A stretch of 30,733 nt of DNA from Chloroflexota bacterium (GCA_026705105.1 JAPPBK010000395.1:1-30733), one strand, 5' to 3'. Shown: positions 3,856-29,516, counted from the first letter of the stretch. Notes: generated by a model from the sequence alone, not told the origin. A program made the numbers and translations.

Positions 3856-4304
3856 CAGGCGCAATGCCGATCGACCTCGAGGTCGAAAACGACTCGACGC
3901 TGGCCCTCCTGCGCCGCGGCCGCAGCCGCGTCCTTCTCGGCCAGGCCTTCCGCGATCTCTTTGGCCCGCTGGTGATCGAGCCATGGGTTCCGCTGCCGGA
4001 TGCGCTCGAGCCACTGCTCGGCCGTGCGCCGCTTCCGGTCGCCGCCGAGATTGATGTAGCGCTCGCGGGGCGCCGTCTCGTTCAGTTCCCTTCGGAGGGC
4101 GAGGATCTCCTGGGCAATAGGCCCTAGCTGACGCCGGAGCATCTCCTCGAACTGGCGGATCAGATCGGCTCGAGCTCCCCCCATCTCCTCGGCAACCGCC
4201 TCGCGCAGGCCCAGCGGATCATCATCGACGTCCAGGCGCCGGCCGTCGATGCGATTCGGCGGCCAGGCTGACGGCTCGTCAGCCGACTGTTCATCCGTCG
4301 TCAT
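3855..4304 (-). CDS. Hypothetical coiled-coil protein (149 aa); C-terminus encoded by repeat copy A
   Basis: ATG at 4304 with an upstream GGAAGGGG SD-like sequence; helical composition. Confidence 0.65.
   Translation of the reverse strand: MTTDEQSADEPSAWPPNRIDGRRLDVDDDPLGLREAVAEEMGGARADLIRQFEEMLRRQLGPIAQEILALRRELNETAPRERYINLGGDRKRRTAEQWLERIRQRNPWLDHQRAKEIAEGLAEKDAAAAAAQEGQRRVVFDLEVDRHCA
3861..3903 (+). repeat. Dispersed palindromic element, copy A (longest, 43 bp)
   Basis: gcaatgccga-TCGACCTCGAGGTCGA-aaacgactcgacgctgg; the 22-bp core at 3871-3892 is identical in four places. Confidence 0.95.
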
Positions 4305-4356
4305 CCCATGCCCCCTTCCAGGTGATTCAACTGCCGGTCCATGTCCGACAAGTGGA

Positions 4357-4399
4357 ATTGTAGCACGTGCCGACAGTCGATTAGGTGACGTGCCGAAAG
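4357..4399 (-). promoter_or_regulatory. Candidate extended -10 promoter for the leftward small-gene/recombinase operon, with operator-like direct repeats
   Basis: TGc-TACAAT on the minus strand at 4365-4357; acgtgccgacag (4365-4376) and acgtgccgaaag (4388-4399). Confidence 0.4.
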
Positions 4400-4651
4400 G
4401 TGGGCGACGTCGCCGGCGAACGCCTGGCGGCGCTAACCCAGAGACGGGGGCTGAGCGGGGAGGTCGACGCCACGGGGACTCCGCGGCTTCCGCCGCCCCC
4501 AGCAGCATCCTAGCCAGGCGTCGGCTCCGGGCGCCCCGGGCAACGGGCGTCGTCGCAGACCTCCGGAATGCCGGCGCGGACGTGGAAGTGGCATCACCGA
4601 TCGAATCGGGTGTCCGTCCGGTCCCACCGTCCTGTTGGCGCCGGTAGCGGA

Positions 4652-4903
4652 TCATGGCGCCGGCGACGTGGCCGCCAGGCCAAGCAGCTTCCGCGCCGTC
4701 TCGACCCGGTGCTCCTGGCCAGGCCGGACCGGGAAGTCCGCCATCGCCCGACCGATCTCCGAAAGCGTCAGCTTCGACCAGGTGACCAGCACGCGCTCGG
4801 CACCGTCCTCGATGACGGCGCTCGAGTCATGGGCGAGCACGGCCGCGGCGACGGCGACGGCCGCGGGGCCCATGCCGGGAGAACCGGTTGTCCGCAGCGT
4901 CAT
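4652..4903 (-). CDS. Hypothetical protein (83 aa)
   Basis: ATG-started ORF with protein-like composition; no motif recognised. Confidence 0.45.
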   Translation of the reverse strand: MTLRTTGSPGMGPAAVAVAAAVLAHDSSAVIEDGAERVLVTWSKLTLSEIGRAMADFPVRPGQEHRVETARKLLGLAATSPAP

Positions 4904-26615: not shown

Positions 26616-27943
26616 TGCCGCAGCCCGTTCCAGGTTTCGATCGCCGGGGCATCTTCCAGGCCTCGCCTGTTTACCGCCCGTCGCGCGAGCTCGCCTGGAT
26701 GCAGGTAGCGCAGCGTCCGACCGGCCACTGGAGCGGCGACGTCTTCACCGGGCTCGCGTCGGCAATCGGCCTCGGCCGCCAGAGCGCCGCGCGGGAGCGC
26801 GAGGAGCAGAAGGCTCTCAACCTGCAGCAGCAGCAGCTCGCCAATCAGCAGGCGTTCGCGGCCGAGTTCTTCGGCACGGATCCGGAGCGCGCCCGCGTGC
26901 TGCTCGAGAACGAGCCCCTGCGGGAGCTTTTCGTCCAGCGCCGGCGCCAGGCCCAGGAGGCGGCGCAGCGCACCCGGGAGGAGGAATCGGCCGCCGAGCT
27001 CGCGCGCATCCGGACGGACGCCCTGGCGCAGATTCCGGAGATCGGTCCGGAGCGGGCCGCGGCGATCGAGCGGATCGCCGGCGATCGAGGCGTCGACCTC
27101 ATTCTCCAGAGCCTGCGTCCGGAAATCGACCTGCAGCCAGCGATCGACTATCTCGTTTCGCAGGGGGAGGATCCGGAGGAGGCCCGCGGCGGCCTTGCAG
27201 CTGGCTTGACGGCCGAGCAGATGCTCGACCGCCTGGACGCCGAGCGCCGGGAGGCGCAGGGCGGAAGCGATGGCTGGGAGCGCGGTACGGGCACTCTGCA
27301 GAACACGCAGTTTCGCCGGCTGCCGGACGGCTCGTTCGAAGCGCAGCCGATTCCGGGCACGGAGGGCGCCGGCGGCGGCGGCAAGCCGCTCACCGAAGCC
27401 CAGGCGAAGTCCGCGAACGCCGCGACGGCGATCGCACTCGCCATGACCGACCTGCTCGCTCCTGGCCAGGGGGGCCGGCCGCGGTTCGAGTCGCTTACCA
27501 ATGTCGGCAACCGGGTCGTCGACCGTCTTCTGCCGGGCGCCGTCGGCCTGGGCGAGGACTATGAGATCGCGTCGAGGGCCGCGAGCCGCGCGGTGGAAGG
27601 CCTGCTCCGTCAGGCCAGCGGCGCCGCCACTCCCGACCAGGAGGTCGCGCGATACATCCGCGATCTGGCGCCCGGGCTTGGCGACGAGCCCGGGACGGTC
27701 CGGCACAAGCTCGAGCAGCTGGCGATCCTCGGCGAGCTGCAGGGCCAGCTGGCCCAGGGCATCCAGTTTCCCAAGCTGATCGCGCTGGTGAACGAGCGAA
27801 TAGCTCAGGGCGACGCGCTCGCGCGCTTCATGCCGAACACCGAGCCGGCGCCAGGCGCCGCGGCGTCGACCAGCGGCATGCACGCGCGGCCGGCGATGCC
27901 CCGCACGCTGGCTGACGTCGCCCGGGCCCGGGGGTTGATGTAA
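26615..27943 (+). CDS. DNA-ejection / transfer protein (442 aa)
   Basis: LTEAQAKS...LLRQASGAA..E..RY..PGLGDEP..V..K motif seen in podovirus ejection proteins. Confidence 0.68.
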   Translation: MPQPVPGFDRRGIFQASPVYRPSRELAWMQVAQRPTGHWSGDVFTGLASAIGLGRQSAAREREEQKALNLQQQQLANQQAFAAEFFGTDPERARVLLENEPLRELFVQRRRQAQEAAQRTREEESAAELARIRTDALAQIPEIGPERAAAIERIAGDRGVDLILQSLRPEIDLQPAIDYLVSQGEDPEEARGGLAAGLTAEQMLDRLDAERREAQGGSDGWERGTGTLQNTQFRRLPDGSFEAQPIPGTEGAGGGGKPLTEAQAKSANAATAIALAMTDLLAPGQGGRPRFESLTNVGNRVVDRLLPGAVGLGEDYEIASRAASRAVEGLLRQASGAATPDQEVARYIRDLAPGLGDEPGTVRHKLEQLAILGELQGQLAQGIQFPKLIALVNERIAQGDALARFMPNTEPAPGAAASTSGMHARPAMPRTLADVARARGLM

Positions 27944-28654
27944 ATGCCCTGGACGATCGAGGAGGCCATGAACCTTTCCGACGAGGACCTCCTCGCCGCG
28001 ATCGAGCGTTATGGCGGTGACTACGAGCTGACGGCCATGACGGAGTCTGACGATTCGACGGCCGGACCGACTGGTTTCGACTACGGCAATCTTCTGGGCG
28101 GCCGTGACGATCGCCGTCAGCGATCGATGACCCAGGAGGAGCGCGACGCAGCGGCTCGGGAGGCCCTGGTGAACGCGCTCGTCACCGCGGCGCCGGTGCC
28201 GGGCGGCCGCGCCGCGGGCCTGGCTGGCCGTGGAGTGGCCAGAGCCGCTGGGAAGCCGCTGGACGCCGTTCTGGGCGCGACCACGGGCCGCGGTGCGAAA
28301 CGAATGCGAGCGCTTCGCCAGGCCGGGCGCTATCCGGAGCGCGCCGGACGCGACAAGGCCGGCCGGTTCTCGGGCGCTCCTCCACGGCCTGGCCAAGAGC
28401 GCTGGTTTCGCCAGGGCGGCGGCGCGTTCGCGGGGCAACTGGCGACCAGCGGCGTGACGAGCATGGCCGTTCCGAGCGTCGCGCCGGCGGCGATTCTCGG
28501 CCTGGCGCTGCAGTCGCCGCGGGTGATCGGCGCCCTGCAGTACGCCACCGGCGCTCTGGGTCGGCTGGGAGCGCGCGTGCCCGCGGGCACCGGCGCTGCC
28601 GGCGCGGGAACCGGCCTAGCCGCACTTCTCGCCGCGGCGAGGGGCTCGCGCTGA
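27944..28654 (+). CDS. Ejection-type protein (236 aa) with Gly/Ala-rich hydrophobic helices
   Basis: SPRVIG..Y..G motif; abuts the previous stop. Confidence 0.6.
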   Translation: MPWTIEEAMNLSDEDLLAAIERYGGDYELTAMTESDDSTAGPTGFDYGNLLGGRDDRRQRSMTQEERDAAAREALVNALVTAAPVPGGRAAGLAGRGVARAAGKPLDAVLGATTGRGAKRMRALRQAGRYPERAGRDKAGRFSGAPPRPGQERWFRQGGGAFAGQLATSGVTSMAVPSVAPAAILGLALQSPRVIGALQYATGALGRLGARVPAGTGAAGAGTGLAALLAAARGSR

Positions 28655-28992
28655 GCTGGAAAGACGACGCGGCCGACGCGGCCGACGCCGCTCACCAGGT
28701 TCTGCGGGACATCGCCAAAGATTCGAAGCTGGCGCCGGCGGCCCGGGTTACCGCGTCGCGGGCGCTCATCGATCTGGCGGAGTCTGTGAAGTCACCGGCC
28801 GAACCTCCGGATGCGACCTCTCCGTCATTCGAATCCGTGCCGGACGGCGTCAATCTGACACCTGAGACGGCCCAGCTGGCGCTTGCCGAGCTCCGTGCGT
28901 GGTTGGTGACCGCGACGGGCGGAGGCTCCAGGTCGATCGACGCAATCGATCAGGCCGCGCAAACGATCCGCGACGAGTTCGCGCCGCGCTGA
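28651..28992 (+). CDS. Putative small terminase-like protein, probably CTG-initiated (113 aa)
   Basis: The frame is open from CTG 28651 (CTGA overlap, GAGGGG upstream); VLRDIAKD..PAARVTASRALID resembles TerS-like helical motifs. Confidence 0.5.
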   Translation: MSWKDDAADAADAAHQVLRDIAKDSKLAPAARVTASRALIDLAESVKSPAEPPDATSPSFESVPDGVNLTPETAQLALAELRAWLVTATGGGSRSIDAIDQAAQTIRDEFAPR

Positions 28993-29516
28993 CGCCCGAA
29001 AACCCTCGCAATATCGCTTCGTCGAAGCCCGGCAAAAGGGCGGAAATAGGCGGAAATTCCGAGAGGATCTATAGTTGGGGCAAAAGAACACCCTGCTTCA
29101 CGACCCTCTTAGACGGGTCGCGGCGCCGGAATACAACACGGGGCTCCCCTGAAATAGGCGCCAACCTTGGTCGTGAAGCTTGGGTGTTTTCTGCGGCCCG
29201 TCACCTTTTCGGCCACTCGAGCCTATGCTCTATCCTCAATAAGCTCTGATGGTCGCCCCAGAAACAACAACGCCCAACCACCCCTTCGATTTCGTTGGCC
29301 TGAGATCAGCAGGTGGCTGGACGCCGGATAAAGCGTCATCAGCATAGCACGGAACCGCCGCGACGGGACTGACCGGGGTTCCGGATCTCCCCAGGGGGGG
29401 GACAGCGTGACGTCGTCGCTCGACCTCGAGGTCGAAAACGACTCGACGCTGGGCCCTGGATCGATCGCGGCAATGTCGATCGAAGCCATCGTCGGCATCC
29501 CGGCAGAGCCCTTCTG
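28993..29516 (+). promoter_or_regulatory. Lower-GC non-coding control region upstream of rep (promoter/origin/leader RNA candidate)
   Basis: No convincing ORF; gcggaaat direct repeat at 29040-29057; long inverted repeat at 29087-29188; repeat copy D. Confidence 0.6.
29420..29452 (+). repeat. Dispersed palindromic element, copy D (33 bp), followed by a partial left arm at 29470-29483
   Basis: tcgacctcgaggtcgaaaacgactcgacgctgg; gcaatgtcgatcga matches 13/14 of gcaatgccgatcga. Confidence 0.95.

Follow-up and report, generated by a model that had tools for sequence, protein, structure and literature searches.

A 22-base palindromic motif in four exact copies on a 31-kb sponge-metagenome phage-plasmid

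The stoperators of Cluster A mycobacteriophages (L5 gp71 type) are asymmetric, monomer-bound sites of 13-14 bp that occur in 20-30 slightly variable copies, at which a single repressor is thought to halt elongation (PMC9283540, PMC6550527). The phage-plasmid described here resembles these phages in that one short site is repeated over a temperate phage genome, in transcribed regions and at gene ends, not just at promoters, and mostly in one orientation relative to transcription; it differs in having four copies of 22 nt with a perfect 16-bp dyad, and no recognised repressor. Plasmid pSM19035 has three omega sites, composed of short repeats and dispersed, which tie operons to a partition-linked protein. 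In RK2, the OB operators of KorB, a ParB-type CTPase, are dispersed identical sites that link replication, partition and other operons (PMC11790492). Identical palindromic or short-repeat sites scattered around a plasmid are the trait that both share with the present element; in contrast, only a 72-aa RHH protein is found here, and its own par operon is devoid of the site, whereas such systems autoregulate. Phage N15 has four dispersed palindromic centromeres, IR1-IR4, reportedly described by Ravin and Lane in 1999 (cited in PMC7205306), and uses SopA/SopB (type Ia). Here, too, a phage-plasmid has four scattered palindromic sites, but the partition system is of type Ib, and the iterons that adjoin par and rep are better centromere candidates.

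Cre/loxP has a 13-8-13 (or 11-6-11) layout, and the fim switch and the Rci shufflon are inversion systems of tyrosine recombinases. Common to these and the present element are a Cre-like enzyme beside perfect inverted repeats that flank a promoter segment, and sites in both orientations; the differences are the lack of such a layout, the symmetric centre of the site, the single orientation seen in assemblies and the absence of the site from relatives of the recombinase. PeSL cassettes of T4-type phages combine a sigma-70 promoter with a terminator stem-loop and lie at indel breakpoints between close relatives (PMC2839356, PMC4122927). Short conserved repeats edging variable gene blocks are the likeness, modular shuffling and mini-circles having been proposed for PeSLs; in contrast, promoter and terminator are absent here, and no mosaic breakpoint relative to the homologue L005 falls at site C. 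Acinetobacter pdif sites are XerC/XerD sites with an 11-6-11 layout and alternating orientation that are used by host Xer (PMC6449649, PMC9947245). As here, a single plasmid has several sites of recombination type with separate modules between them, but the 11-6-11 layout, the alternating orientation and the use by host Xer do not fit the present case.

The window, i.e. the whole stretch of DNA analysed, has 30,733 nt and is the entire contig C229 of a 2.7-Mb MAG, in which the motif was also searched. The element is circular, as the earlier note on this DNA had mapped it: assembly L011 crosses both ends of the window. An exact search confirmed the four identical 22-mers (TCGACCTCGAGGTCGAAAACGA; sites A-D, Table 1) with zero mismatches, and no further match in the window was obtained when up to 3 mismatches were allowed; 100 dinucleotide shuffles yielded 0 matches (chance expectation 0). 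Also in agreement with the earlier description, bases 1-16 form a perfect palindrome that is followed by an asymmetric tail; the symmetry ends beyond 16 bp, and the dyad arms are only 5-8 bp long around a symmetric centre. Three TCGA tetramers in 6-nt phase are found at the four sites and nowhere else in the window. The count in host and related elements suggested in the earlier note places the 22-mer on contig C229 only within the MAG and gives none in relatives, and exact searches of GTDB-representative, IMG/VR and JGI metagenome contigs returned no match. On its own, the 16-mer palindrome is a frequent single-copy chance word of GC-rich genomes, so specificity resides in the full 22-mer; the 80 loci listed for the 16-mer, among at least 120 stretches, contain one site each. 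A solitary CRISPR-repeat unit was rejected as an identity for the motif, given that the MAG is without arrays and the listed 16-mer loci are single-site.

Table 1. Coordinates of the motif copies and neighbouring features in the window
Feature	Position	Strand	Remarks
Window end inside ~465-bp junction palindrome	1..72	.	L011 comparison
parA (204 aa, NCBIfam ParA_partition) and 72-aa RHH protein gene	368..1197	+	No motif copy nearby
Cre-type tyrosine recombinase, 340 aa	2254..3276	-	R, K, H, R, W, Y aligned with Cre
149-aa ORFan gene	3855..4304	-	3' end = site A
Site A	3861..3903	+	22-mer 3871-3892; both flanks, GCAATGCCGA left and CTCGACGCTGG right
Recombinase-operon promoter/leader block, conserved	4307..4404	-	Extended -10 TGCTACAAT
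83-aa ORFan gene, between B and promoter block	4652..4903	-	Gene call
Site B	5156..5193	-	22-mer 5167-5188; intergenic; sense to local transcription
Gene C, 179 aa as now readable	11305..11844	-	Mature part of secreted protein
Insertion, 92 nt, carrying site C	11815..11906	-	22-mer 11816-11837 (-); versus L005 homologue
Orphaned ribosome-binding site, start codon and signal peptide of gene C	11907..11990	-	MRKLSIFLLMALTAAAAIAQIGATDPAK
Rep leader ORF	29407..29517	+	GTG 29407 or ATG 29473
Site D	29417..29483	+	22-mer 29420-29441; right flank to 29452; inside rep leader ORF
Rep, 401 aa	29517..30722	+	Homologues on T4SS conjugative plasmids

The gene calls agree with the modules that had been delimited by the sites: D to A spans the rep, par and recombinase genes, B to C the fibre and envelope cargo, C to D the morphogenesis genes and A to B a segment of 1.3 kb. 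The statement that two copies lie inside CDSs needs correction, as A is the end of a gene, C a gene-splitting insertion, D part of a leader ORF and B intergenic. Orientation relative to transcription is the same in three of the four copies (B, C and D sense, A antisense), four being too few for statistics on position or orientation. Site A, the only copy with left and right flanks together, makes up the final 16 codons of the 149-aa gene; this gene fills a slot of variable content that has the recombinase genes on one side and the conserved promoter block on the other. The 22-mer of site B begins 16 nt past the stop codon of an ORF of 50 aa, and a further 264 nt separate its end from the 83-aa gene; it is located in window-specific DNA that forms a spacer after the envelope cassette. 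A and B constitute a 38-nt inverted repeat with 100% identity, its arms being 1,252 nt apart. As in an inverton, this repeat encloses the promoter/leader block and the recombinase operon adjoins; the block is 79-92% identical in L215, L216 and L217 and has the ancestral orientation, and the segment is seen in the window and in assemblies L011 and L012 only in the orientation common to relatives. An origin of the A-B segment as an inserted element was rejected, its middle being ancestral and syntenic. Searches with the 83-aa and 149-aa proteins found no homologues, and their models are poor.

At site C, comparison with L005 reveals that the 92-nt insertion shifts the frame and splits a conserved secreted-protein gene. 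The perfect core is wholly within the inserted DNA, and the gene sequence is unbroken up to the insertion point. The left flank occupies 11838-11847, and an ATG at 11844 restarts the ORF; codons 1-10 of gene C derive from the insertion, owing to which the signal peptide is out of frame with the mature part. Near the opposite end of the insertion lies the right-flank 9-mer TCGACGCTG (11892-11900), which occurs 5 times in the window versus 1.1 expected, and just 32 nt within the insertion match another copy. At site D, a second, left-flank-like half-site (GCAATGTCGATCGA, 29470-29483) stands 17 nt after the core and right flank; its single change, C to T, retains a G-U pair. The rep leader ORF and rep share the sequence TGATG, in which the stop of the former and the start of the latter overlap; the C-terminus of the leader ORF is conserved in plasmid L089, site D being located in the variable part.

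All four copies lie in lineage-specific DNA that is absent from relatives, and the motif is missing from recombinase relatives, from Rep relatives (62% and 57% identical, both located on T4SS conjugative plasmids) and from one phage relative. Since the copies lie in such DNA, the site, judged by these comparisons, was inserted into coding DNA rather than preserved against coding constraint; the contrary claim, that it was kept despite this constraint, is wrong, and the insertion at C broke a gene. The copies are a young, recently spread, lineage-specific family of one cis-acting site. Extended identity amounts to 38 nt for A/B, 35 nt for B/D (38 with 1 mismatch), 33 nt for A/D, 32 nt for A/C, 27 nt for B/C and 22 nt for C/D. 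The left flank is common to A and C only, the right flank to A, B and D only; flank sharing is pairwise and mosaic, and the ~43-bp consensus that had been put forward is not borne out. The copies have only 22-43 nt in common, and similarity farther out is not significant, on which grounds a MITE or small insertion sequence was rejected. No sigma-70-like promoter or terminator was found at the sites. Fold z-scores range from -0.6 to -0.9 in four of five folds (copies A, C and D), copy B reaching -2.4; because promoter and terminator are absent and the hairpin is no stabler than shuffled sequence, nothing points to the sites acting as a structural RNA or a terminator. A PeSL-type cassette was rejected for the lack of promoter-like matches near the sites and for z-scores that are weak except at B.

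On the favoured reading, tentative and of low confidence, the four copies would be common binding sites for one element-encoded dimeric regulator, which would form roadblocks in transcribed regions; this agrees with the more general option of the earlier note, dispersed protein-binding sites. A binder that acts as a dimer is suggested by the perfect 16-bp dyad, and roadblock action is proposed because every copy lies within a transcribed stretch and not at a promoter: site D in the rep leader ORF, site C in the first codons of an operon that joins gene C to the fibre and envelope genes, site A at the 3' end of the gene that precedes the recombinase genes, and site B in the spacer following the envelope cassette. 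Roadblock formation or silencing could thereby tie three things to a single factor, namely replication of the plasmid, expression of the fibre/cargo operon and that of the recombinase operon, in a manner comparable to mycobacteriophage stoperators or dispersed plasmid KorB/omega operators. The 83-aa and 149-aa ORFan products, encoded between A and B, are candidate binders, and a regulator acquired with its sites would give the observed pattern of a lineage-specific motif together with lineage-specific ORFans in this segment. The invariance of the 22 nt in 4/4 copies, alongside diverged flanks and the 32 matching nt inside the insertion at C, suggests that the core is under selection, and the phased TCGA tetramers fit an ordered protein-DNA array. 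Several points weaken the binding-site reading: (i) real operators usually differ among copies, and copying, recombination or base-pairing would better explain identity over 22-38 nt; (ii) site C splits the signal peptide from its protein, an odd position for a selected operator given ~140 nt of free leader upstream; (iii) no binder was recognised, and the two ORFan products lack homologues; and (iv) the family-wide conserved regulatory motif GACAGTYGAAYC, which is found both upstream of gene C and in the leader of the recombinase operon, differs from the 22-mer.

It is doubtful that the copies are instead a selfish or neutral short repeat, functionless and spread, as pieces of a small unit made up of core, right flank, spacer and left flank, by illegitimate or template-switch events into permissive, lineage-specific DNA. 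The location of 4/4 copies in DNA missing from relatives, and the clean frame-breaking insertion at C, speak for it. This insertion opens with the right-flank 9-mer and closes with the left flank plus core, as a circular permutation of a complete A site; at D, a left-flank copy follows the core and right flank by 17 nt. However, terminal inverted repeats and target duplications are lacking, a Pfam scan of the main ORFs recognised no transposase, the rest of the MAG contains zero copies, and the short stretch held in common (22-43 nt) does not amount to a full element. Conservation of a perfect core while the rest of the C insertion is matchless argues for selection.

Base-pairing would account for the full-length identity, which it requires. 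A putative RNA in which antisense A represses the other copies in trans, or a 38-bp A/B stem within one transcript cut by RNase III, is nevertheless an unlikely basis for the sites. Copy A, transcribed antisense at the 3' end of the 149-aa mRNA, would be perfectly complementary to 33 nt of the rep leader, to 32 nt at the start of gene C including the AUG, and to 38 nt of the B spacer; the complementarity spans the gene C start codon and codons 5-15 of the rep leader ORF, which is translationally coupled to rep through TGATG. The G-U-preserving change in the half-site at D and the orientation split of three sense and one antisense are in line with pairing, but the 3:1 split is not significant at four copies, the palindrome is unnecessary for antisense pairing, the hairpin is weak, and no promoter or terminator delimits a small RNA at A.

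That the sites are targets of the Cre-type recombinase, with A/B as an invertible promoter segment and D/A and B/C excising or re-fusing backbone and fibre/cargo, is improbable, despite an enzyme that is intact, Cre-like and equipped with all catalytic residues, and whose operon begins 0.6 kb from A. The A/B inverted repeat around the conserved promoter of this operon is arranged as is typical of invertible switches, exact identity combined with mosaic flank sharing is the expected product of exchange at the core, and the block from D to A, a plasmid-type backbone with Rep relatives on conjugative plasmids, fits a cointegrate origin. However, a scan of the sites and intergenic DNA for a lox layout (10-13 bp arms, 6-8 bp spacers) found nothing, so that the absence of a loxP-like arm-spacer-arm arrangement, already remarked upon, stands; a symmetric centre would give no directionality. 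Three independent assemblies from different samples (the window, L011 and L012) are collinear through all sites, with no breaks there; the public runs are k=31 unitigs, broken at every repeat of at least 31 nt, and cannot show junctions. Relatives with recombinases 75, 67, 60 and 54% identical (L215, L216, L217 and L219) show neither the motif nor a comparable inverted repeat on the 4.3-11.6-kb contigs recovered around the recombinase genes, the nearest match having 5 mismatches in 22. Copy C is no crossover product, its entire core lying inside inserted DNA, and active direct repeats would remove essential modules. With collinear assemblies, no lox layout and a motif absent from relatives, the recombinase-target option of the earlier note has no positive evidence. 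A canonical-looking alternative, an inverted repeat of 24 bp with a 6-nt asymmetric spacer, is located at the centre of the junction palindrome in L011, most of which is absent from the window; from its layout this lox-like repeat would be a better lox candidate than the 22-mer sites.

Dispersed partition sites for ParA/RHH, on the model of N15 IR1-4 or the pSM19035 omega sites, are a very unlikely identity: the analogy holds in form, four scattered copies of a 16-bp palindrome being present on a phage-plasmid that encodes ParA, and contiguous TCGA-containing hexamers resemble the unspaced repeats bound by RHH proteins, but it fails for partition type and position, as ParA is of the small type with an RHH partner rather than a SopB/ParB HTH protein (no ORF scanned matched a ParB family), no copy is near parA, at whose start other repeats occur (two TATCATG and the palindrome ATGCTAGCAT), no omega-like TCGA array is found at the promoter of the par operon, and related ParA/RHH plasmids are without the motif, though with RHH proteins of just 31% identity. 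The arrays of a ~41-nt iteron beside the par and rep genes, with 3-4 copies in each arm of the junction palindrome in L011, are better candidates for a centromere or an origin.

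The earlier note had placed four identical copies of a 22-mer, TCGACCTCGAGGTCGAAAACGA, in the window, and scans for exact matches and for matches at ≤3 mismatches bear this out: the copies (sites A to D in the table) are free of mismatches, and there is no fifth copy in the window at ≤3 mismatches. In 100 dinucleotide-preserving shuffles of the window, the 22-mer found 0 matches. Bases 1-16 form a perfect palindrome, and TCGA repeated three times in 6-nt phase occurs within the window only at the four sites. A ~43-bp consensus had also been proposed. Identity indeed runs past the 22-mer, but its extent differs by pair: 38 nt for A/B, 35 nt for B/D (38 nt allowing one mismatch), 33 nt for A/D, 32 nt for A/C, 27 nt for B/C and 22 nt for C/D. 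The left flank, GCAATGCCGA, is common to A and C and the right flank, CTCGACGCTGG, to A, B and D; both flanks together are found at site A only, and flank similarity past about 43 nt is not significant.

Coordinates of the repeat copies and of genes discussed in the text
Feature	Position	Strand	Remark
Site A 22-mer	3871-3892	+	
Site B 22-mer	5167-5188	-	
Site C 22-mer	11816-11837	-	
Site D 22-mer	29420-29441	+	
parA	368-982		
RHH gene	979-1197		
Tyrosine recombinase	2254-3276	-	
rep leader ORF carrying D	GTG 29407 to TGA 29515-29517		stop overlaps rep ATG as TGATG
Rep	29517-30722		

The host-bin count that the earlier note had proposed revealed no copy of the 22-mer elsewhere in the MAG at ≤2 mismatches, and the exact 22-mer has no match in the GTDB representative genomes, IMG/VR or the JGI metagenomes. 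Taken by itself, the 16-mer palindrome is common in GC-rich genomes as a single-copy word, reading IDLEVD in preferred codons, and site specificity therefore resides in the full 22-mer. The DNA around each of the four copies is lineage-specific and transcribed; relative to local transcription, A is antisense and the other three are in sense orientation.

The history of copy C can be read from the viral contig L005, a phage relative that lacks the motif; its terminase is 72% identical and it is collinear with the window from 20553 to 8993. In L005, the gene after the terminase has a ribosome-binding site, an ATG and a signal peptide, with the mature domain directly adjoining. In the window, the same leader, ribosome-binding site and signal peptide (11990-11907) are followed by 92 bases that are extra relative to L005 (11906-11815), after which the mature domain resumes. 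Because 92 is not divisible by three, the signal peptide of this secreted-protein gene (gene C) no longer shares a frame with the mature domain; the ORF that can still be read begins anew at ATG 11844 in the shared left flank, which is also the start chosen by the gene caller, and the protein, if made at all, would be devoid of an export signal. The site had been thought to be kept despite coding constraint, which the comparison with relatives turns the other way round: the site entered coding DNA. Whichever role the sites have, copy C is a dated, clean case in which a short cis-element entered a protein gene and gave it a new start. The right-flank 9-mer TCGACGCTG lies at 11892-11900, 6 nt into the insert; it occurs five times in the window versus 1.1 expected, and three of these belong to sites A, B and D as their flanks. 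A reading in which C arose by site-specific integration into a pseudo-site of the gene was considered and rejected: native gene sequence continues up to where the insertion starts, and the insert contains the entire perfect core, so that C is not the product of a crossover at a pseudo-site. Relative to L005, mosaic breakpoints are located at about 11422, within the fibre gene and at 8993; site C coincides with none of them.

Copy D is carried by the leader ORF of rep. The end of the leader peptide and the TGATG overlap are kept in the plasmid L089 (3270-3406), and in the plasmid L090 (9843-10004) a short ORF likewise overlaps the rep start, which suggests translational coupling by analogy with IncFII- or IncB-type control. 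A conserved hairpin is located ~70 nt upstream of D; its spacing, counted from the printed sequences, is about equal (69 vs 75 nt), indicating that D replaces a variable part of the leader rather than adding to it. A left-flank-like half-site (13/14) follows D at 29470-29483. The Rep relatives of L089 and L090 (62% and 57% identical) reside on ~33-34-kb plasmids with T4SS genes, which marks the D-to-A block as a plasmid-type backbone. Both plasmids are conjugative, carry toxin-antitoxin pairs and come from one other ENA metagenome assembly (ERZ25069580); a relative of the Rep C-terminal domain is annotated in an Acidobacteria MAG. That the motif is a Rep iteron was rejected, the Rep relatives lacking it and the iteron arrays of the family lying downstream of rep.

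Around A and B, the comparison rests on contigs with relatives of the recombinase (L215, 75% identical; L216, 67%; L217, 60%; L219, 54%), in all four of which the motif is absent. The recombinase relatives have in common a block of ~100 nt at window 4307-4404 (79-92% identity), which contains an extended -10, TGCTACAAT, and is located upstream of the recombinase or of genes put before it. CTGTCGG/CCGACAG repeats are part of the conserved promoter/leader block (window 4307-4404, 4522-4583) in four relatives, and a related motif, GACAGTYGAAYC, is found upstream of gene C (window 12084-12097) and twice in L005. This is likely to be the real common regulatory signal of the family. The slot between the block and the recombinase genes is occupied by a 149-aa ORFan in the window, by an unrelated 157-aa gene in L215, by an 84-aa gene in L216 and by nothing in L217. 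Site A forms the last 16 codons of the 149-aa gene and, as homology to L215 resumes at window 3819, lies at the far edge of this lineage-specific gene; site B lies in window-specific DNA (about 5350-4584) beside a 50-aa ORF and an 83-aa ORFan. Searches of the ESM Atlas and whole-library HMMER returned no usable relatives of the 83-aa and 149-aa proteins. An IS-like reading of the A-B segment was discarded: its middle is the ancestral promoter block in ancestral orientation, and so the segment did not arrive as a mobile element. In L215, the gene that precedes the recombinase gene opens with a duplicate of the latter's first ~55 nt (2451-2505, 2857-2936) and is itself a fusion of homologues of the window's 65-aa and 113-aa proteins; the duplication is a footprint left by the insertion of a gene in the variable slot.

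The independent MEGAHIT contig L011 (ERZ27276995), 99.9% identical to the window, extends from the terminase gene by way of C, B and A over both window ends and on past D, so that the element is a circle with the same order; L012, a third assembly, shows collinearity over B and A. As seen from L011, the window lacks about 440 nt at the circle junction and is otherwise a nearly complete circle; when closed, the circle measures 31.2 kb. The junction (window 1-72, 30723-30733; L011 12263-12784) separates ORF87 from the end of rep and forms a near-perfect palindrome of ~465 bp. Its arms hold 3-4 copies each of a ~41-nt iteron (CCCTTGACAGGCCCC...) and its centre a 24-bp inverted repeat with the 6-nt spacer TTGAGT (L011 12508-12561), a structure with which Logan unitigs are consistent. 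The junction is likely an origin, centromere or dimer-resolution region, and it is the best lox-like candidate for the Cre-type enzyme. Similar iterons are found at the end of L215.

How the four copies function can be stated only tentatively. The favoured reading, possible rather than probable, is that the motif is a shared binding site: a dimeric protein encoded by the element would bind it, and the bound motif would act as a roadblock or silencer within transcription units. One factor could in this manner tie together rep (via the coupled leader), the operon of gene C, fibre and cargo, and the recombinase operon. A shared binding site is favoured because the motif is a perfect dyad, its 22 nt are invariant while the surrounding inserted DNA is without match, the copies sit in leaders and inter-cistronic DNA, the sites show no promoter, terminator or unusually stable structure, and two lineage-specific ORFan genes co-occur between A and B. 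Confidence is nevertheless low, since copying, recombination or pairing would account better than an ordinary operator for two features: the exactly identical stretches of 22-38 nt and the insertion of C that broke a gene. That the motif is a selfish or neutral short repeat is a rather unlikely alternative.

Recombination, with the sites as recombinase targets or A/B as an inverton, is unlikely. The enzyme itself is intact (its best match among solved structures is Cre, E 1e-9 over the full length, and the catalytic Arg, Lys, His, Arg, Trp and Tyr are all kept), A and B form a 38-nt perfect inverted repeat on either side of the operon's promoter, and the flanks are shared in mosaic fashion. 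Against this, the arm/spacer scan confirmed that the site lacks the loxP arm-spacer-arm layout, as the earlier note had remarked; the motif centre is symmetric, the assemblies are collinear, the relatives of the recombinase are devoid of the motif, and the junction palindrome offers a more canonical site. Recombination at the motif would use a short symmetric core without precedent. The module map drawn previously is correct. It is quite improbable that the phage-plasmid is a reversible cointegrate in which the Cre-type enzyme sheds a ~5.6 kb D-A mini-plasmid (rep, ori, par, recombinase), excises or swaps the 6.6-kb B-C fibre-plus-envelope cargo and flips the A-B promoter segment; the motif is not established as a shuffling system. 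Three sequencing runs contain the element, represented by Logan k=31 unitigs; by construction, these end wherever a repeat reaches 31 nt, and hence at all four sites, and the loose unitig ends at 3871 and 5188 are the D-flank unitig overlaid on the shared repeat. A recombinase-anchored metagenome scan yielded only relatives at ≤44% identity (most <35%), and the repeats near these (e.g. the L020 iterons) are unrelated to the motif.

RNA pairing of the antisense copy A with the sense copies B, C and D is similarly improbable. A centromere is very unlikely: the form of the motif fits the likeness to N15 that had been suggested, but the partition system here pairs a small ParA with an RHH protein, parA has short repeats of its own and no motif copy nearby, and iteron arrays adjoin both par and rep. 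In the 31-nt gap that separates parA from ORF87 (window 337-370), TATCATG occurs twice alongside a 10-bp palindrome, ATGCTAGCAT; this may be the operator of the RHH protein. Explanations outside those listed are given an equally slim chance. Three further readings were rejected: (i) a terminator, as the hairpin is followed by an A-run on one strand and preceded by a T-run on the other, and the cores gave no hit in a terminator scan; (ii) a shared N-terminal peptide (MPIDLEVEN at gene C, LDLEVEN in the rep leader ORF), as the gene at A is on the opposite strand (GC3) and B has no start codon; and (iii) a CRISPR-repeat mimic, as the MAG is free of CRISPR arrays and, among the 80 listed loci with the 16-mer, every one has just a single site.

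Dispersed identical cis-sites are already known, among them the stoperators of phages (PMC9283540), the KorB operators of plasmids (PMC11790492), IR1-4 of N15 (PMC7205306), PeSLs (PMC2839356) and pdif sites (PMC6449649). The present site adds to them a sequence of its own in an uncultured phage-plasmid, and the arrival of one copy is recorded unusually cleanly. As shared operators, the copies would form a compact control circuit, in a phage-plasmid of an uncultured sponge symbiont, that joins the recombinase operon to plasmid replication and to the genes for host range and cargo; the two ORFan genes would then be likely to encode the regulator. As recombination sites, they would reveal the way in which a phage fuses with, and parts from, a plasmid backbone whose Rep relatives are on conjugative plasmids.

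The contig, all of which is covered by the window, is longer than any other in the fragmented 2.7-Mb MAG, and its GC content of 69.5% exceeds that of the bin (65.9%) by 3.6 points, so its binning is not secure and the host assignment is doubtful; a related terminase is absent from all 36 congeneric genomes. The source sample is a sponge metagenome, and the element is present in the sponge metagenomes behind X1-X3, ERZ27276995 and ERZ23500888. A Logan contig of run X2 matches the window up to 17582 (about 17550-17582), beyond which it reads as a type I-E-like CRISPR repeat of 28 nt, GGTTCCCCCGCACACGCGGGGATAGACC; the same metagenome thus seems to hold a CRISPR spacer against the element, which could identify the host. 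Besides those already discussed, the element carries genes for a large terminase, a portal and a PKD-repeat protein. ~300-nt PKD-domain repeats occur four times in a 579-aa gene (window 20299-21306), and tandem 87-nt coding repeats in a 646-aa gene (window 25580-25952) are the sole place besides the contig ends where two assemblies disagree.
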